64,000 nt of DNA from Escherichia virus TH15. The stretch lies in sequence record MT446392.1; one strand, 5' to 3'. Position 1 is the stretch's first letter. Every line of letters starts with the position of its first letter. The translations under genes and the position numbers were made by a program. The notes under the pieces are model-generated. The model did not search any database. It had not been told where the DNA came from and worked only from the letters and a program-made list of their open reading frames with translations. This document shows, in pieces, positions 5,620 to 47,678 of this stretch.

Positions 5620-6594
5620 ATGTTTAATATCAAATGTATGTCTAAAGCCGAACAAGCTGATGTGGTCCAGATGTATTCAACGGGCAATTATACCCAGCCT
5701 GAATTGGCAGAATATTTTGCTGTGTCCGTTGACACCATTCGCCGCGTTTTGAAAAATGATAAAGAATCAAAATTAGCTAAAACCATTTCTGCATCACTGA
5801 AAGCAGCTGTTGGTGTGGCGATTAATGCTCCGGTGACAGTAACGGTTGAAGTTCCGGTTGTTGAAGATACAATCGGTGGAAGCCGCCCGGAAATCGTATG
5901 GAACGCATCGAGTAAATTCGTTTCCATCACTGAAGGCCGTACAGTCTGGAACGCAACAAAAGACCATAAACACTTTGATGATATTATTCAGGCATTGATT
6001 GAATTCCGTTATGAAGATGCTATTGAGTATATCTCAATCAAAGCCGCAGTGCAAAAATATGTGAAAGGTGATGTGCGTATCGAAGGCGGTAGTTTGTTCT
6101 ACCAGGGAATTGAACTGCGCTCTGGTCTGGTTACTCGTATCATCGATTCAATGCAAAATGGCGAAGACTTTGAATTCTATCTGCCATTCCTTGAGAATCT
6201 CCTTGAGAACCCGAGCGAGAAAGCCGTACAGCGTTTGTTTGACTTCCTGGTTGCGAATGATATCGAAATCACCGAAGACGGTCATTTCATCGCCTGGAAA
6301 ATGGTTCGTTCAACCTACAAAGATTGTCACTCAAACACATTCGACAACAGTCCTGGTCAATATGTTAAAATGCCACGCTCTCGTGTGAATGACAATGACG
6401 AACAGACCTGTTCAACCGGGCTGCACGTTTGTTCTAAAGGTTATATCGGAAGTGGTTTTGGTCATGGTGATGGGCGCATCGTATCCTGTAAAGTTCACCC
6501 GCGTGATGTTGTAAGCATCCCGGTGGATTATAACGATTCCAAAATGAGGGTTTGTGGTTACCTGGTTCTTGACGATGTAACTGAACAATTCTAA
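5620..6594 (+). CDS. rIIB: rIIB protein
   Basis: N-terminus MFNIKCMSKAEQADVVQMYSTGNYTQPELAE and C-terminal HPRDVVSIPVDYNDSKMR closely match remembered T4 rIIB. Confidence 0.85.
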   Translation: MFNIKCMSKAEQADVVQMYSTGNYTQPELAEYFAVSVDTIRRVLKNDKESKLAKTISASLKAAVGVAINAPVTVTVEVPVVEDTIGGSRPEIVWNASSKFVSITEGRTVWNATKDHKHFDDIIQALIEFRYEDAIEYISIKAAVQKYVKGDVRIEGGSLFYQGIELRSGLVTRIIDSMQNGEDFEFYLPFLENLLENPSEKAVQRLFDFLVANDIEITEDGHFIAWKMVRSTYKDCHSNTFDNSPGQYVKMPRSRVNDNDEQTCSTGLHVCSKGYIGSGFGHGDGRIVSCKVHPRDVVSIPVDYNDSKMRVCGYLVLDDVTEQF

Positions 6595-6627
6595 ATTAAT
6601 CGGGGCTTCGGCCCCTAATGAGGCTTT

Positions 6628-6825
6628 ATGTTAGGTTTCCAAGCACGTGTAGTTGAAGAATATGACCAACTGGTCCTAAAAATCAATGCTCTTGAAGAGT
6701 TTATTAAAGGTGGTATTTTTGAAACTCTTGATATCCGTCAACAAGGGTTACTGATTGCACAGCTGGATGCGATGGGTGCTTATGCTCATTGTTTAGCAGT
6801 TCGTATTTCTTATTTTGGTGAATAA
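6628..6825 (+). CDS. Hypothetical protein
   Basis: ORF with GAGG SD, directly after a GC hairpin downstream of rIIB. Confidence 0.3.
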   Translation: MLGFQARVVEEYDQLVLKINALEEFIKGGIFETLDIRQQGLLIAQLDAMGAYAHCLAVRISYFGE

Positions 6826-7098: not shown

Positions 7099-7675
7099 AA
7101 CATGGGAGCATCTGAAAAAGATGCCCTCCTTTCTTTATACAAAGGAAGACTTAACACCCGAATCCATGCAAAAGATTGTAGACACTGCCAGGTATTCATT
7201 GCGTAAAGACCCAGCCCAGGACCGCGAGCAAGTCATGCAAAGATGTATGGTGGCTACAATGGCCGAACAAGCTATTGCCAAATGGACCTCCGGTTTCTTA
7301 TGTGGCGGCGATGAAGATTACAATAACCCGTTCTCTTTTGCATTCGATGTAGTCTCCCAGGAAGGGGTAAGAATCGAAGTTAAGACTCACCAATCTGGCT
7401 CCAAATGGATATCCGTGCATACTGGTCACCAGGGCGATTATCCACGTGGTTACGGAGTTAATCTTGGGCCCTTTATGCAACACAAGCTTGCTGACCTTAT
7501 GATTATGTTTAATGTAAAAGAGACTATCAAAGGTTATAGATTTAAACCAAAATTCCTTGCTGGACCTGGTGCTTTCGTTCCTGAGTCTGGACTTGTGCAG
7601 AAGTCACAAGGGGATGGCTGGTACCTCCGTTCTTGTTCAGAAGAAAAATTTCCCTATCACCGGTTTACAAGCTGA
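7082..7675 (+). CDS. Hypothetical protein; positional candidate for denB (endonuclease IV)
   Basis: About 197 aa from the internal ATG with GAGG SD; lies between rIIB and ndd where T4 carries denB (185 aa). Identity not verified by sequence. Confidence 0.4.
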   Translation: MIQKSKTWEHLKKMPSFLYTKEDLTPESMQKIVDTARYSLRKDPAQDREQVMQRCMVATMAEQAIAKWTSGFLCGGDEDYNNPFSFAFDVVSQEGVRIEVKTHQSGSKWISVHTGHQGDYPRGYGVNLGPFMQHKLADLMIMFNVKETIKGYRFKPKFLAGPGAFVPESGLVQKSQGDGWYLRSCSEEKFPYHRFTS

Positions 7676-7720
7676 ACCAACTGTGTAATAATGTCCTCAT
7701 ACCAACAAATGAGGACATTA
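7663..7720 (+). promoter_or_regulatory. Putative early promoter plus 12-bp SD-sequestering hairpin upstream of the ORF at 7723
   Basis: GTTTAC 7663-7668; AT-rich -10 near 7686-7691; perfect stem 7689-7700 / 7709-7720 containing GAGGA. Confidence 0.45.
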
Positions 7721-7722
7721 TC

Positions 7723-7998
7723 ATGGAACACGTTACTACTCATCACATCAAACAAATTCTTATTCAAGCACTCAAAAACAACAACATCAATTTTCCAACC
7801 CATGAAATTTTTGATGTGGTATTCAACGAAGTCCAGGGCCAAGTTGCATATTATGACGTTATCGTTTATCTTTCAGAATTTGAAGTCTACCACTTGACTG
7901 AAATCGCCTTCTATCTCTATCGCGGAACAGCAGATTTTACTGGGGTCGTGAATGCAGTTGGTGCATATAAAGAAGTTAAAGAACAAATGCACAATTAA
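7723..7998 (+). CDS. Hypothetical early protein
   Basis: ATG 3 nt after a 12-bp perfect hairpin that contains the GAGGA SD; track start 7633 is upstream of the predicted promoter. Confidence 0.45.
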   Translation: MEHVTTHHIKQILIQALKNNNINFPTHEIFDVVFNEVQGQVAYYDVIVYLSEFEVYHLTEIAFYLYRGTADFTGVVNAVGAYKEVKEQMHN

Positions 7999-8000
7999 TC

Positions 8001-8056
8001 AAAAAGTAGTGTACATCAGTATGGAGTCTATGTATAATGATTCCATACTGAGTTAC
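8001..8056 (+). promoter_or_regulatory. Early promoter cassette copy 1 (TGTACA -35, 17-nt spacer, TATAAT -10, conserved leader gattccatactgagttac)
   Basis: -35 at 8010-8015, -10 at 8033-8038; 9-bp inverted repeat (8018-8026 / 8042-8050) encloses the -10. Confidence 0.6.
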
Positions 8057-8072
8057 CAAACTGGAGAATAAA

Positions 8073-8228
8073 ATGAAACCTGCTCAATATGCAATGACTT
8101 TATACCTTGAAGTTAATGGCGATATTACTGAATTTTTTAAATTAATGCAACAGCGTGGTAAAAGTTTTGCAGTTACCGAGCGTCAATTTTACGCTTGCCG
8201 TAAAAATACATACAATCGTTACGCGTGA
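8073..8228 (+). CDS. Small hypothetical protein (51 aa)
   Basis: First ATG downstream of promoter cassette copy 1, with GGAG SD. Confidence 0.3.
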   Translation: MKPAQYAMTLYLEVNGDITEFFKLMQQRGKSFAVTERQFYACRKNTYNRYA

Positions 8229-8238
8229 GGAAAACAGA

Positions 8239-8505
8239 ATGGATATTAAATTATACTACGCCAAACACAAAGTTACAGGTATGGTTGTTGCCGCTATGTA
8301 TGATGCGTCAGGCGATGGTGATGATGTTACTACAGAATTGTCTCTTTCTGAATGTAAATTTCTTCGCCCGCTAGTTGCATCAAAGTGTGATTTAGAAAAG
8401 CTTATTGATGGAAAACTGGATAATGTTGATGGCATAGATATTCTTTATGACCTTCGCACTGCATTGCACAGGGGTCTGATTGAAATAAAAGAGGTGATAT
8501 TTTGA
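8239..8505 (+). CDS. Hypothetical protein (88 aa)
   Basis: Internal ATG with GAGGA SD; track start 8155 is probably not used. Confidence 0.4.
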   Translation: MDIKLYYAKHKVTGMVVAAMYDASGDGDDVTTELSLSECKFLRPLVASKCDLEKLIDGKLDNVDGIDILYDLRTALHRGLIEIKEVIF

Positions 8506-8596
8506 GCAGCAAAACCTGGTGCCTTATCTGGATGCTGTGTATCCCAGTAATTTGCGTTTGTTTTAGTTTATTATTAATGAAACTTGCATAAAAGAG

Positions 8597-8642
8597 TGTA
8601 CATCTCCAGTGGTTGTAGTATAATGAACCTATCAACTACTGG
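8597..8642 (+). promoter_or_regulatory. Early promoter with a hairpin whose 3' arm covers the SD
   Basis: TGTACA 8597-8602, TATAAT 8619-8624; inverted repeat ctccagt (8604-8610) / actggag (8636-8642) spans the -10 and the GGAG SD. Confidence 0.5.
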
Positions 8643-8650
8643 AGATGATT

Positions 8651-8767
8651 ATGAAAAAGTTACTTAAAGCCATTTGGAACATGTTTGTACTGTTTGTTGT
8701 CCTGAGCATTTTCCCAATTGTTTTTATGATTGACCATGTACGTGTTTACTTTAACTATTTCTTTTGA
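8651..8767 (+). CDS. Small hydrophobic peptide (38 aa, one predicted TM segment)
   Basis: ATG follows an early promoter and GGAG; hydrophobic core FVLFVVLSIFPIVFMI. Confidence 0.3.
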   Translation: MKKLLKAIWNMFVLFVVLSIFPIVFMIDHVRVYFNYFF

Positions 8768-8777
8768 GGAAAATATT

Positions 8778-8900
8778 ATGCGGTATAGTTCAAACTTTCA
8801 GAAATCCAATCGTCGCTTTGACTTTATGTTCAAGTTTATTGTGGCGATGATTATCCTGATTTTCATTGGTGCTATTGCAATGATTGGTTTCCAGGTCTAG
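8778..8900 (+). CDS. Small hydrophobic peptide (40 aa, one predicted TM segment)
   Basis: GAGGA SD; hydrophobic core FIVAMIILIFIGAIAMIGF. Confidence 0.3.
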   Translation: MRYSSNFQKSNRRFDFMFKFIVAMIILIFIGAIAMIGFQV

Positions 8901-8980
8901 ATTGCTGCTGAAGTGTTCACGCAAATCCAGGATAATGGTCTGAAGTCTGTTGTTGACGTAATTTGGAATGGAGCTAAGCA

Positions 8981-9226
8981 ATGAAACTTTTTAAAGACAT
9001 TGTAGTTGGTGAAAAATTTGTCCTTGGTAATGGTCAACAATTGATTCGCATTTCACCTTTGATGGATAACAGCGAGCGTCCTGTGCGCACTGAAAACTGT
9101 TTGGATTATCCTTTTTATCAGAAGCGTTTTGCAATTGAAAATAATACTGAGTGCTTCACAGTTGATGAACTGATGGAATCATCAGAAGAAGTTGACTTGT
9201 GGGATGGCGCGGTAGACCCTGAATAA
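8981..9226 (+). CDS. Hypothetical protein
   Basis: ORF with GGAG SD in the ndd-proximal hyperplastic region. Confidence 0.45.
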   Translation: MKLFKDIVVGEKFVLGNGQQLIRISPLMDNSERPVRTENCLDYPFYQKRFAIENNTECFTVDELMESSEEVDLWDGAVDPE

Positions 9227-9242
9227 AATTGAGGAAATCATT

Positions 9243-9587
9243 ATGTCTAAAGTCTTTTTTGGTAATCGCAACATTATGTTCTTTAAACAAATTAGCGTAT
9301 CAGAAGCATTTGATTTAAGTTATTCAGGTGGCACAAAAGTTGTTCACCTTAAAAATTTGATGTCTGCAGAATTTGCGTTCTATCAGGACCCTGAAACTGG
9401 TTTCTATAAATTTATTAAATTCCGTATGACTATGGACCGTGATTATCGCGATGTTTATTATACAAGTTATGAAAGTGTTGTGAATGCAATTCGTGAAGCT
9501 TATGGATTGGATTCATTGTCTCTTGACCGCCTGTATAATGCAAGCCTTTATACTTCTGGATTTATTTTAGAACAGCTACAAAAATAG
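9243..9587 (+). CDS. Hypothetical protein
   Basis: ORF with GAGGA SD. Confidence 0.45.
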   Translation: MSKVFFGNRNIMFFKQISVSEAFDLSYSGGTKVVHLKNLMSAEFAFYQDPETGFYKFIKFRMTMDRDYRDVYYTSYESVVNAIREAYGLDSLSLDRLYNASLYTSGFILEQLQK

Positions 9588-9630
9588 TATACAAACTCTT
9601 GGGGTCAGAGTATAATGACCCCACTGGAGC
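9588..9630 (+). promoter_or_regulatory. Early promoter (TATACA -35 / TATAAT -10) with flanking inverted repeat
   Basis: -10 at 9611-9616 flanked by ggggtca / tgacccc. Confidence 0.45.
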
Positions 9631-9660
9631 ACAAAACTTTAACTTACTGAGGAAATTAAT

Positions 9661-10110
9661 ATGACTACTTACATGACTCGTCGTGACGTACTGAATGCTG
9701 GCGCTACCACTATTGCTTACATCCATAATGGTAATTATGTTGCGGGGCGTCCAACTAAAGAAGCTATCACCCAACCAGGTTTTTATTTCGTGGTCAAAGG
9801 TGAAGGCGAATCACGTATTGTTGCCGCACGTTTTTATGTTGGTAACCAACGTTCACAACAAGGGTTTGACACTGTATTAAGTCACATCCGCAAACAGCGT
9901 TCTCAACTGTCTCGCACAATGGCGAACAATGGGGTTATCTATGAAGTCCTGTTTGTCCCGGTTTCTAAAATGAAACCTCTGACAACTGGTTATGGTAAAG
10001 GTCAAATTGCGATGGCGTTCACTCGCTCGCATAGTTCTGATTGTCAGACCCTTTCAGAAATGAATCGCATGCTTGCTGATAACTTTAAATTCATTCTGCA
10101 GAGCTATTAA
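9661..10110 (+). CDS. ndd: Nucleoid disruption protein Ndd
   Basis: 149 aa; motifs [39 protein letters not shown] and C-terminal [12 protein letters not shown] match remembered T4 Ndd. Confidence 0.8.
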
Positions 10111-12011: not shown

Positions 12012-12039
12012 CAAATGAATCAAACTACGGGAGAATAAA

Positions 12040-12255
12040 ATGTTTACTGCACAACAGAATGAAGGTCAAGAATACATCAACGCTAAATTCAAATCTAACA
12101 AAGAAGCTTGCTATTACTACTTTGACATGTTCAAACTGGCGAATTCTAAAGAAGAACGTAAACAAGCGATTGATGTTATTGTTTCTACTTCCCATATGAA
12201 GCGTACTGTGGTACAATCATATGCATCCAATTACATGAAATCTATTAAGGGATAA
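12040..12255 (+). CDS. Hypothetical early protein
   Basis: First ORF after promoter cassette copy 2; GGGAGA SD. Confidence 0.45.
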   Translation: MFTAQQNEGQEYINAKFKSNKEACYYYFDMFKLANSKEERKQAIDVIVSTSHMKRTVVQSYASNYMKSIKG

Positions 12256-29356: not shown

Positions 29357-29360
29357 TATA

Positions 29361-29390
29361 AGGGGACCTTCGGGTCCCTTTTTTATTTTC
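29361..29390 (+). terminator. Intrinsic terminator downstream of gene 32
   Basis: aggggaccttcgggtcccttttttatttt. Confidence 0.8.
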
Positions 29391-29446
29391 AAAAAGTAGT
29401 GTACAAGTCCTTTGAGCTAAGGCATAATGATTCCATACTGAGTTAC
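29391..29446 (+). promoter_or_regulatory. Early promoter cassette copy 3 (after the gene 32 terminator)
   Basis: aaaaagtagtgtacaagtcc...gcataatgattccatactgagttac; -35 29400-29405, -10 29423-29428. Confidence 0.6.
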
Positions 29447-30530: not shown

Positions 30531-30561
30531 GTTTACAAAGGGTCTATGGTTGAGATATTAT
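30531..30561 (+). promoter_or_regulatory. Early promoter (GTTTAC / TATTAT) with inverted repeat ggtctat / atagacc
   Basis: Sequence gtttacaaagggtctatggttgagatattatagacc. Confidence 0.5.
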
Positions 30562-30590
30562 AGACCTATCAATTACATGAGGAAAATAAA

Positions 30591-30820: not shown

Positions 30821-30851
30821 GTTTACAACAGGGCTATGGTAGTGATACTAT
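30821..30851 (+). promoter_or_regulatory. Early promoter (GTTTAC / TACTAT) with inverted repeat ggctat / atagcc
   Basis: Sequence gtttacaacagggctatggtagtgatactatagcc. Confidence 0.5.
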
Positions 30852-30877
30852 AGCCTTACCAACTTGAGGAGAATAAA

Positions 30878-31117
30878 ATGAAATTAAAACGTGAGAGCAT
30901 CAAAGATTCAGAAGTTAAAGGTAAATGGTACTTCACAATCCAGGGTAACAATCCTGAAGCTCTGGAAAAAGCAGAAGAAACTTTGTGTGCAATGGGTTGG
31001 AAAGATGAGTGTGATGGTTGTCCTCTTTATGAAGATGGTAGCTCATCTGGTTTCTGGATTCACCACTCTGATGTTGACCAATTTAAAGCTGACTGGAAAA
31101 TCGCTAAGAAAGCGTGA
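30878..31117 (+). CDS. Hypothetical early protein
   Basis: ORF with GAGGAG SD and its own early promoter. Confidence 0.45.
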   Translation: MKLKRESIKDSEVKGKWYFTIQGNNPEALEKAEETLCAMGWKDECDGCPLYEDGSSSGFWIHHSDVDQFKADWKIAKKA

Positions 31118-39535: not shown

Positions 39536-39545
39536 TAAAAAGGGG

Positions 39546-39574
39546 TGTACAAGCCCCTTCTTTCTATACATAAT
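39546..39574 (+). promoter_or_regulatory. Early promoter whose -35 (TGTACA) lies in the loop of the preceding terminator hairpin
   Basis: Hairpin ggggtgtacaagcccc; CATAAT at 39569-39574 with 17-nt spacer. Confidence 0.5.
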
Positions 39575-39605
39575 GGTTCCATCAACTACTGATGAGGACC
39601 AAACC

Positions 39606-40984: not shown

Positions 40985-41088
40985 TAGAGACCTGTAGCCT
41001 TGGTTGGGATATTGTTAGATTTGGTGCATTCTGTTTTTGTTTTGGGATTGCGGCCACTTTATGTGTTCAAGGTCTTTTTGGAAAGTAG

Positions 41089-41117
41089 TGTACAAACTCA
41101 TGGGAGCAGAGTATAAT
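41089..41117 (+). promoter_or_regulatory. Early promoter (TGTACA / TATAAT) with inverted repeat ggagc / gctcc around the -10
   Basis: 17-nt spacer; drives the ORF at 41149 and pseT. Confidence 0.5.
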
Positions 41118-41148
41118 GCTCCTACGGATAATAATTGAGGAAATAATT

Positions 41149-46760: not shown

Positions 46761-46790
46761 AGGGACTCTTCGGAGTCCCTTTTTTTTATT
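46761..46790 (+). terminator. Intrinsic terminator downstream of the small basic ORF
   Basis: agggactcttcggagtccct followed by eight T. Confidence 0.8.
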
Positions 46791-46793
46791 TTC

Positions 46794-46849
46794 ATAAAAG
46801 AGTGTACAACAGGATTTGCCCAGTGCATAATGATTCCATACTGAGTTAC
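46794..46849 (+). promoter_or_regulatory. Early promoter cassette copy 4
   Basis: -35 TGTACA 46803-46808, -10 CATAAT 46826-46831, identical leader 46832-46849. Confidence 0.6.
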
Positions 46850-46872
46850 ACAATAAAACACTGGAGAATAAA

Positions 46873-47241
46873 ATGAAAATCAATCTTAACTCATACATCA
46901 AAGGCAAAGACCACGACGGTTACAAAGCCATTGAAACTAAAGAGATGCAATGGCACTTGTATAAAGAACAGTTTGAATTTGTTGGTTGCATGACTCCTGA
47001 AGGTCCTTCTGATGACTTCTCTTGGAAAATTATGGTAACAAACTTTTTTACTGGTGATACCTACGAACTGAAAACTTTGATTTTGGGTAAGATTCGTTGT
47101 AAGACCTATGAAGATGAAGAAACTGGTTATTCTGAAGATGTTACATGGTATCAAAATGGTCGCACTACTGCTGATGATTTGATTGAAAAAATGAAAGCTA
47201 ATGGTGAATTAAATTTAGATAATTGGATTAAAGTCGCATAA
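46873..47241 (+). CDS. Hypothetical early protein
   Basis: First ORF after promoter cassette copy 4; GGAG SD. Confidence 0.45.
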   Translation: MKINLNSYIKGKDHDGYKAIETKEMQWHLYKEQFEFVGCMTPEGPSDDFSWKIMVTNFFTGDTYELKTLILGKIRCKTYEDEETGYSEDVTWYQNGRTTADDLIEKMKANGELNLDNWIKVA

Positions 47242-47245
47242 AACA

Positions 47246-47274
47246 GTTTACTTTGGTACAGGTTATGATATTAT
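47246..47274 (+). promoter_or_regulatory. Early promoter (GTTTAC / TATTAT) with inverted repeat ggtacaggt / acctgtacc
   Basis: 17-nt spacer; hairpin arms flank the -10. Confidence 0.55.
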
Positions 47275-47312
47275 AGACCTGTACCAACAAATGAAAACAA
47301 CTGGAGAATAAA

Positions 47313-47678
47313 ATGAACTACATCAACTTTGAACGCAAATATGTTTCCAACTGCATCCCAGGTTCTTCTGAAGTTATTTGCTTGTGGAAACATCAAAACG
47401 GTTCAGTGTGTGAAATTGAACAATATATGACTCCTAACTACGTTTATATGCGATTTGAAAATGGTATCACTCTTTCAATTACTAAGGAAGGTTCCAACTT
47501 TAAAATCGCATTAGATGATGATTTCCGTGAACGTGATTTAGGGACTCATCCTTGCTGGAATGGTGTTAATCGCAAGCTCCTGGTTAAAACTTGGATTCGT
47601 CACATCCTGAGCAGCAAAGTAAAACCTGAACACCTGGAAGCAATCTTTGATGTAGTTCTTAATGAATTTGATATCTAA
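47313..47678 (+). CDS. Hypothetical early protein
   Basis: Own GTTTAC/TATTAT promoter; GGAG SD. Confidence 0.45.
   Translation: MNYINFERKYVSNCIPGSSEVICLWKHQNGSVCEIEQYMTPNYVYMRFENGITLSITKEGSNFKIALDDDFRERDLGTHPCWNGVNRKLLVKTWIRHILSSKVKPEHLEAIFDVVLNEFDI

Follow-up and report, generated by a model that had tools for sequence, protein, structure and literature searches.

We describe three genes of Escherichia virus TH15 whose Shine–Dalgarno (SD) sequences are predicted to be hidden, in read-through RNA, by a piece of their own promoter. In a 64,000-nucleotide stretch of this genome (sequence record MT446392.1; one strand, 5' to 3'; hereafter the window), the SDs of the open reading frames (ORFs) ORF7723 and ORF39606 and of the ndd.4 homologue (ORF8651) each lie in the 3' arm of a hairpin whose 5' arm is contributed by the gene's own early promoter. 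RNA that reads through from upstream carries both arms, and in it the SD is computed to be paired; RNA from the promoter itself is predicted to start at or beyond the end of the 5' arm, and in it the SD is computed to be open. We conclude that these three genes are, on balance, probably translatable only from the RNA of their own promoters, the SD in read-through RNA being buried by the promoter-arm hairpin. The evidence consists of the anatomy of the hairpins, the contrast in folding energy between long and short transcripts, the excess of such structures over chance, and the conservation of pairing, with compensatory changes and a bias toward G.U pairs on the sense strand.

Predicted Pairing of Promoter Arms with Shine–Dalgarno Sequences

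The first hairpin (A) precedes ORF7723. An earlier reading of this DNA by eye (the original prediction) claimed a perfect 12-bp stem at 7689-7720 holding a GAGGA SD, and this is exact in the sequence: the stem is a perfect 12 bp, or 13 bp if the A7688-T7721 pair is included, and the SD GAGGA (7711-7715) lies inside the 3' arm, followed by the ATG at 7723. The 5' arm overlaps the -10 and the discriminator of the promoter P7663, and the predicted transcription start (~A7699) falls at or beyond the end of that arm. In the second hairpin (B), which precedes ndd.4, the 5' arm is the spacer of the promoter P8596, the loop holds the -10 TATAAT, and the entire 5' leader of the gene forms the 3' arm, which includes the SD GGAG (8641-8644); the ATG is at 8651. 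The predicted start of P8596 (~A8631) is past the end of the 5' arm. An inverted repeat spanning this -10 and the GGAG had been proposed at 8604-8642; the repeat is real, with an extent that was drawn too short, since it runs from 8601 to 8647 and an end at 8642 cuts the GGAG. Folded as read-through RNA, hairpin A has a minimum free energy (MFE) of -20.2 kcal/mol (z = -5.1) and hairpin B one of -25.5 kcal/mol (z = -5.8), and for neither was any of 200 shuffled sequences as stable. The third hairpin, which precedes ORF39606 and was missing from the earlier list, buries an SD GAGGA (39594-39598) and has z = -2.9 against shuffled sequences when folded as read-through RNA. Its promoter, P39545, is composite, with a -35 flanked by a terminator-like stem (39540-39546/39553-39559) that is followed by a T-rich tail, and its predicted start is ~A39581.

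To place these sites among the early promoters of the window, we scanned for the pattern G-T[G/T]TAC[A/T]-N15-18-TAnnnT followed by an SD and ATG. The scan yields 15 predicted sigma70-type early promoters, all on the + strand and each with an SD+ATG 15-50 nucleotides (nt) downstream, and they are near the PST/T4 consensus TTTACW-N17-TAYWAT. Seven have a stem flanking the -10 (8009, 8596, 9587, 30531, 30821, 41088 and 47246, named by the start of the -35), one has a stem surrounding the -35, two have short stems within the spacer, and two (29399 and 46802) have canonical terminators just upstream of the -35. Stems around the -10 are far more frequent than expected by chance. A Watson-Crick stem of 6 bp or more surrounds the -10 in six of the 12 promoters tested, compared with a mean of 0.67 and a maximum of 4 in 1000 shuffles in which the spacer and downstream bases were permuted, and the summed MFE of the 12 is -143 kcal/mol vs -58 +/- 8 kcal/mol when shuffled.

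We expressed the accessibility of each SD as the free energy needed to unpair it, in a long RNA starting 60 nt upstream of the -35 and in a short RNA starting 7 nt after the -10. Opening the SD of ORF7723 costs 12-15 kcal/mol in the long RNA vs 2.7 kcal/mol in the short one; the corresponding values are 13.9 vs 1.6 kcal/mol for ndd.4 and 8.1 vs 1.4 kcal/mol for ORF39606, and the short RNAs at these three sites are unstructured (z ~0.2-0.5). The same three sites are the most buried of the 71 SD+ATG sites in the window (ORF7723, 15.4 kcal/mol; ORF8651, 14.5 kcal/mol; median, 2.7 kcal/mol). A large contrast between long and short RNA is found at these three of the 15 promoters only. At the remaining promoters, which include the four sites that had been listed as similar and the stems at 8016 and 30830, the difference is at most ~3 kcal/mol. 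The notion that all -10-flanking stems sequester an SD was rejected for this reason, because at most sites the SD is equally open in long and short RNA. The original prediction had proposed for its sites that read-through RNA folds to block the SD and that the local transcript leaves it free. In silico this is borne out at 7723 and 8651 and fails at 9601, 30541, 41102 and 47254; the mechanism is thus partly supported by the folding models, being right for two of the six sites listed and for one new site, ORF39606.

For each of the seven -10-flanking stems, folding favours the sense strand over the antisense strand (G.U pairs, 12 vs 2), and one-sided substitutions that preserve pairing nearly always make G.U on the sense strand, which suggests a structure in sense-strand RNA. 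A structure of that kind is present only in read-through transcripts. The 5' arms at these sites lie outside the upstream coding regions, and translation of the preceding gene should therefore not melt the helices. Opening of the helices by translational coupling is judged unlikely from the positions of the upstream stop codons, which are 11-13 nt before the helix base (7673-7675 vs 7688; 8589-8591 vs 8601).

The Pairing Is Kept While the Arms Change

Judged by its sequence, the window is from a T4-like coliphage of the Gaprivervirus type: positions 7400-9800 are 93-96% identical to Escherichia phages UPEC01, VR7, VR20, VR25, VR26 and SP18. At ndd.4 we could look beyond these close relatives. 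An orthologous P8596 promoter is found in VR7, in JS98-like phages and in T4, and complementarity between spacer and SD occurs in at least four lineages, each with its own arm sequences and spacer registers (Table 1). The register of the 5' arm differs between lineages, so that a single consensus structure could not be scored and the lineages were scored separately. When the spacers were shuffled, the observed burial of the SD was matched in 0/500, 0/500, 0/500 and 4/500 cases in the four lineages. This spacer-shuffle control applies to P8596 and to T4, but not to P7663 and P39545, where the 5' arms lie over or after the -10. Within lineages, the covariation signal is weak, though consistent, with one G-C to U-A compensatory change in one group and only G.U changes in the other.

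The homologues of ORF7723 are too uniform for such an analysis, and covariation was therefore taken from homologous cassettes upstream of denV. The ORF7723 cassette (TGTGnTAnnAT-GTCCTC...GAGGAC) has homologues in front of denV in other T4-like phages, and these have clearer -10 boxes (TGTGnTATGAT) than P7663. For 14 homologous cassettes of this 7689 type, RNAalifold predicts this same helix, with 11 pairs, of which 7 show compensatory changes, and every one-sided change that preserves a pair leads to G.U. In phage fDHCT2 the promoter and hairpin A are retained, with a C-to-T change that still pairs as G.U. The ORF7723 homologue of this phage (1501-1758; unannotated) is itself seemingly disrupted, with 82% identity and an internal deletion.

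The Same Design in T4 and Its Relatives

We ran the same promoter and SD pipeline on 109 kb of T4. It picks out 24 pairs of early promoter and gene, and in six of these the SD is computed to be buried in read-through RNA alone: ndd.4, nrdC.8, regB, motB.2 and denV, each with a difference of at least 9 kcal/mol, and e.8, where the effect is weaker. With shuffled spacers, 0.18 such promoters are expected per set, and no set had more than 1. The ndd.4 and nrdC.8 genes of T4 have one cassette in common. Three lineages keep the pairing upstream of regB, each with arms of its own sequence, and there the SD takes 8-15 kcal/mol to open in the long RNA vs 0.1-0.3 kcal/mol in the short one. Most of ~35 distinct T4-like sequences have such pairing upstream of denV as well, and it comes in two architectures, one pairing the spacer with the SD and the other pairing the -10/discriminator with the SD. 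In the jumbo relatives (345-378 kb), the denV promoter has a terminator-type stem and a T-run between -35 and -10, and the SD is free.

Two side observations concern these loci. In the jumbo relatives, the -35 (TTGACT) of the denV promoter lies inside an AAAGGG...CCCTTTTT terminator hairpin that is followed by TATAAT, and this form matches the published nt-1/KVP40 type of promoter stem-loop. The ndd.4 gene of T4 (166636-166764) is annotated from a start (MEEQKMKK...) whose ATG overlaps the SD GGAGG; all ndd.4 homologues begin at MKK, five codons downstream, with proper SD spacing, and the T4 annotation is probably five codons too long.

Taking the window and T4 together, we tentatively suggest, as a possibility that we would put somewhat below even, that ~1/5-1/4 of T4-type early promoters are self-licensing, in that the spacer or discriminator serves as an anti-SD, read-through RNA is silent, and only own-promoter RNA is translatable and possibly RegB-sensitive.

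Relation to Known Elements

By their architecture the window hairpins are promoter-early stem-loops (PeSLs), a class that the earlier reading had not recognized. PeSLs are composite elements of an early promoter and a stem-loop, found first in RB49/phi1 and later in PST/T4 and nt-1/KVP40; the stem-loops occupy five positions, most commonly between -35 and -10 or overlapping the -10, and have been interpreted as terminators or attenuators and as recombination points (PMC2839356, PMC4122927). The window elements resemble them in combining a sigma70-type early promoter with a stem-loop at a variable position, often over the -10; in being intergenic, just upstream of the SD+ATG of small genes, and clustered in hyperplastic regions such as denB-ndd; and in having modules common to several loci and G-T pairs in the stems, which the PeSL authors had remarked upon. 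Hairpins A and B sit in this denB-ndd "hyperplastic" region, which is also the example in Comeau 2014 (Fig. 6A), and the VR7 (Tevenvirinae, Gaprivervirus) counterpart is annotated rIIB - denB.1 - denB - ORF288c - ORF287c - ndd.4 - ndd.3 - ndd.1 - ndd - 52 - motA. Cassette exchange, by which PeSLs are recognized, is seen here as well: the same cassette precedes different genes, and the gene that follows P8009 varies among close relatives (ORF8073 in the window, MDIKLYYAKH in VR7 and another ORF in VR26). Unlike published PeSLs, the window stems have no U-tracts, and some of them have the SD of the gene itself as their 3' arm; Gaprivervirus was not among the phages analysed in those papers. The 2010 PeSL paper (PMC2839356) makes no use of the words translation, ribosome or sequestration.

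The second relevant group comprises the hairpins of T4 e, soc, 49 and I-TevI, established cases of an SD or AUG buried in a helix that has an internal promoter; I-TevII/III, mobE and segB have related hairpins, and in the documented cases of gene e and I-TevI the internal promoter is late (PMC3014915). As at those genes, the SD in the window would be buried in upstream transcripts, and a promoter in or after the 5' arm is predicted to give a shorter, translatable RNA. The promoters of gene e and I-TevI, however, are late and gp55-dependent (TATAAATA), so that translation is delayed, whereas the window promoters are early and sigma70-type, with no TATAAATA late promoter at the three window sites; a further difference is that the 5' arm in the window is the promoter's own spacer or -10/discriminator. 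The analogy to gene e and I-TevI that had been drawn earlier therefore holds for the mechanism and not for the timing, and by this comparison the window sites would work like the gene e/I-TevI family without being strict members of it. Aeh1 mobE and T4 segB are similar in that a local helix hides the SD of a small and potentially harmful gene of a T4-type phage (PMC3014915), and different in that they are free-standing homing endonuclease genes, which the window genes are not (no Pfam match).

Canonical terminators (29360-29381, 46761-46780 and 39540-39559) occupy the same intergenic place near an early promoter and would also insulate the downstream cassette; they differ in having a GC-rich stem, often a UUCG loop, and a U-tract, whereas the window hairpins have no U-tract and enclose the -10 and/or the SD. 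We found no description of early-promoter spacers as anti-SD elements in the searchable literature, which leaves out older T4 papers in subscription journals, so that priority is uncertain.

Proposed Mechanism and Its Meaning

In the mechanism that we propose, sigma70-type early promoters (G-T[G/T]TAC[A/T], 16-18 bp, TAtAAT) would use their least recognition-critical parts, the spacer or the -10/discriminator, as one arm of a helix, and at ORF7723, ndd.4 and ORF39606 the other arm would be the SD region of the gene. Read-through RNA, carrying both arms, would form a local helix of 11-18 bp (loops, 5-10 nt) in which the SD is buried. RNA from the gene's own promoter would begin at or beyond the end of the 5' arm and leave the SD open, and the gene would be translated only from its own early promoter. 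Since early promoters are off a few minutes into infection, early or middle read-through from upstream could not sustain synthesis. The outcome would be a short immediate-early burst, the reverse of the timing at T4 e, soc, 49 and I-TevI.

T4 serves as the reference for how phages time their gene expression, and why many early proteins stop being made so abruptly is not fully understood. If the proposal is correct, a conserved and unremarked layer of immediate-early control would act on T4 regB, denV, motB.2, nrdC.8 and ndd.4, and PeSLs would gain a translational function beyond their terminator and recombination roles. A gene so controlled would be expressed only while its own promoter fires, irrespective of read-through from upstream, and this would explain the burst-like synthesis of tightly controlled products such as RegB. 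If spacers double as anti-SD elements, densely packed small early genes would be insulated one by one with no added sequence, and the arrangement would offer a compact design rule for synthetic operons in which translation is licensed by transcript origin.

Several points weigh against this interpretation. The SD is sequestered at only 3 of the 15 promoters, and masking of the SD thus leaves most -10-flanking stems unexplained. P7663 has an imperfect -10 (AATAAT), and its -35 lies within the last codons of the denB coding sequence; ORF7723 is confined to one genus, Gaprivervirus, with homologues above 94% identity and almost no divergence. Within-lineage covariation at ndd.4 is thin, with one compensatory pair among 8 sequences. 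The start sites are assumed from the promoter consensus, and the energies are those of naked RNA folding at equilibrium, whose outcome could be altered by ribosomes, S1, helicases or RegB. From the literature, T4 denV is reported to be RegB-resistant for a reason of sequence and not of structure (PMC1702504), and a stem-loop of RB49 showed terminator-like activity in a lacZ assay (PMC2839356).

Alternative Explanations

The lacZ result bears on the published view of PeSLs, in which the stem-loops stop or reduce transcription from upstream, insulating the cassettes, and burial of the SD would be incidental. Arbiol et al. (2010) found that the RB49 stem-loop cut expression about as much as rrnB T1 and proposed this role for all PeSLs (PMC2839356). 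Canonical terminators do lie just upstream of, or around, the -35 of three window promoters, as located above, and the jumbo relatives have AAAGGG-loop-CCCTTTTT stems between -35 and -10. Neither the -10-flanking nor the SD-containing stems are followed by a U-tract, the 8 nt behind them holding 1-4 T (e.g., TCATGGAA, GATTATGA and CTGGAGCA), and terminator scans do not list any of them, although textbook terminators are present elsewhere in the same genome. On these sequence criteria, a reading of the stems as intrinsic terminators was rejected as unlikely. A terminator role also leaves unexplained why the 3' arm is the SD and why the pairing has been re-created in different registers across lineages. 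We regard this view, as an explanation of the SD-burying hairpins, as unlikely.

A second alternative is that the helix shields the GGAG of read-through RNA from RegB or other RNases while own-promoter RNA is cut, so that selection would act on decay and not on ribosome access. RegB cuts GGAG in early mRNAs, among them its own SD; RNA structure protects from RegB, and the regB promoter is an ordinary early one, off after 2-3 minutes (PMC3014915). The T4 genes regB, nrdC.8 and motB.2, which have a helix between promoter and SD, are RegB substrates. In the ndd/motB cassettes described below, a GGAG 2 nt past the stem (window 9624-9629) pairs with an invariant CTC just after the -35, lengthening the helix, and in the window five perfect matches to the RegB consensus (GGAGAAUAAAA) act as SDs. 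Against this, the SDs at 7711 (GAGGA) and 8641 (GGAGAUGAUUA) fit the 11-nt RegB consensus poorly, and regB itself is located outside the window. A buried SD is untranslatable regardless of RegB, so that masking would add to translational control by the promoter arm and not replace it. As a replacement we consider it quite unlikely.

Apart from this argument, two observations on RegB sites may be recorded. The sequence GGAGAATAAAA, which fits the published RegB/S1 target consensus of 11 nt (GGAGRAYARAA), occurs in exact form five times, each time on the + strand (8063-8073, 12030-12040, 30868-30878, 46863-46873 and 47303-47313), compared with a chance expectation of 0.39; at least four of the five end at the A of the start codon, and the genes concerned look like canonical RegB substrates. 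The GGAG of T4 motB RNA, the model RegB substrate, may be the same site as the cassette GGAG; read-through RNA would mask the GGAG of the ndd/motB cassettes.

A third possibility places the function in the DNA: the repeats would be hot spots for recombination or template switching in single-stranded or cruciform DNA, as in the mini-circle model of PeSLs, and effects on RNA would be by-products. Mini-circles formed between PeSLs were detected by Arbiol et al. (PMC2839356), which counts in its favour, and the same promoter and leader modules precede unrelated genes, as seen in the 7689-type cassette before denV, the "gattccatactgagttac" leader, and the cassette common to T4 ndd.4 and nrdC.8. The strand bias is difficult to reconcile with this idea, because a change that preserves pairing as G.U on the sense strand is an A.C mismatch on the other, and the sense strand folds better in seven of seven stems. 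Recombination, moreover, needs shared sequence and neither self-complementarity nor an SD as an arm. We find it improbable that the DNA is the level of selection. The readings as terminator, as RegB mask and as recombination point are compatible with SD burial by the promoter arm and are not mutually exclusive with it.

That RNase III, or some other nuclease specific for double strands, cuts polycistronic early RNA at the helices between cistrons, as in T7 early RNA, is suggested by the length of helix B (18 pairs, one bulge, between cistrons) and is nevertheless most improbable, given that most stems are 7-13 bp, which is below the typical length of an RNase III substrate, that a review of T4 post-transcriptional control does not mention such processing (PMC3014915), and that no Rfam family matches.

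Stems That Leave the Shine–Dalgarno Sequence Free

Beyond the SD-burying sites, the four repeats that had been described as similar (9601, 30541, 41102 and 47254) are all present within 1-4 nt of the coordinates given for them, and two comparable stems (8016-8051 and 30830-30857) are additional to that list. All of these leave the SD outside the helix (Table 1). The stem of P8009 has z = -5.2, with the ORF8073 SD at 8063-8066, and the helix of the ndd promoter is lengthened by CTC(T)...GGAG pairing.

Table 1. Positions of the promoters, hairpins and genes considered here, and arm sequences at ndd.4
Feature	Position	Strand	Description
Early promoter P7663	7663..7692	+	G-TTTACA -35 (7664-7669), 17-bp spacer, TG-extended -10 AATAAT (7687-7692)
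Hairpin A	7688..7721	+	5' arm 7688-7700, loop 7701-7708, 3' arm 7709-7721
ORF7723	7723..7998	+	91 aa; = VR7 ORF288c
Early promoter P8596	8596..8624	+	GTGTACA, 16-bp spacer, TATAAT (8619-8624)
Hairpin B	8601..8647	+	5' arm 8601-8618, 3' arm 8629-8647; 18 pairs, one bulge
ndd.4 homologue	8651..8767	+	38 aa, hydrophobic, predicted inner-membrane peptide
ndd.4 arms, window and VR7			ATCTCCAGTGGTTG / CAACTACTGGAGAT
ndd.4 arms, JS98-like phages			ATCTCCATTAG / CTAATGGAGAT
ndd.4 arms, T4 and close relatives			TGTTCTTCCGTGG / CTATGGAGGAACA
ndd.4 arms, fourth lineage			TCCATT / AATGGA plus outer helix
Composite promoter P39545	39540..39601	+	-10 CATAAT (39569-39574); predicted start ~A39581
ORF39606 hairpin	39574-39584/39590-39601	+	buries SD GAGGA (39594-39598)
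Early promoter P8009	8009..8051	+	GTGTACA-17-TATAAT, -10 8033-8038; stem 8016-8028/8039-8051
Early promoter of ndd	9587..9623	+	stem 9600-9607/9616-9623; SD not sequestered
Early promoter 30531	30531..30567	+	stem 30540-30550/30557-30567; SD free
Early promoter 30821	30821..30857	+	stem 30830-30841/30846-30857 overlapping -10; SD free
Early promoter 41088	41088..41124	+	stem 41101-41108/41117-41124; SD free
Early promoter 47246	47246..47287	+	stem 47253-47267/47272-47287; SD free
-35 starts of the 15 predicted early promoters	7663, 8009, 8596, 9587, 14538, 29399, 30107, 30531, 30821, 39545, 41088, 43123, 46802, 47246, 53617	+	

These stems, too, show signs of selection. A cassette family of the form AACTCnTGGGnnCAGAG-TATAAT-GnnCCC includes the ndd and 41088 promoters of the window, T4 motB, and several relatives (12 distinct sequences). 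In this ndd/motB family, 3 of 8 stem pairs have two-sided changes, and pairing holds in 95.8% of cells; covariation scores 0.49 vs 0.23 +/- 0.04 when shuffled (0/500), and slid registers pair at most 58%. Among homologues of ORF30878, the stem is held by two double compensatory changes in one relative and is made of unrelated sequences in others, and in phages further removed the -35 and -10 are separated by a G/C stem with a T-run. Relatives at the other two loci say less: most relatives of ORF41149 have no promoter at that position and are uninformative, and at ORF47313 the stem sequence is conserved, which leaves almost no covariation signal. On their pattern of change, the -10-flanking stems that stop short of the SD are RNA helices of the sense strand that are under selection and have no terminator tails; their function may lie in attenuation, in pausing, in processing, or in hiding a RegB site close by.

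The leader "gattccatactgagttac" after the -10 is common to P8009, P29399 and P46802 (approximately 8039-8056, 29429-29446 and 46832-46849). A complementary spacer that makes a stem with this leader occurs at P8009 only, and P29399 and P46802 have canonical terminators upstream.

Other Features of the Region

In searches of the seven small ORFs of the region against Pfam, the sole match was DUF7248 for ORF8778, which gives no clue to a need for tight control, and the whole window had no Rfam 15 match at the gathering score. ORF7723 is among the ORFs with no Pfam match. The GenBank record EAWsc9 labels its homologue "MafI family immunity protein," a label that Pfam does not support, and for the VR7 homologue the annotation notes a doubtful resemblance to an ORF of a Staphylococcus phage.

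Between rIIB and denB.1, VR7 has a gene for an HNH endonuclease (VR7 stretch 953-1444) that is missing from the window (6594-6628). Together with the variation in the gene that follows P8009, its presence or absence is the cassette-level variation expected of a hyperplastic region. Finally, positions 8502-8591 of the window hold a 29-codon, TTG-initiated ORF with a very hydrophobic predicted peptide (MSSKTWCLIWMLCIPVICVCFSLLLMKLA); it occupies a 140-nt gap, unannotated in VR7, between ORF287c and ndd.4, and may be a real gene for a small membrane peptide.

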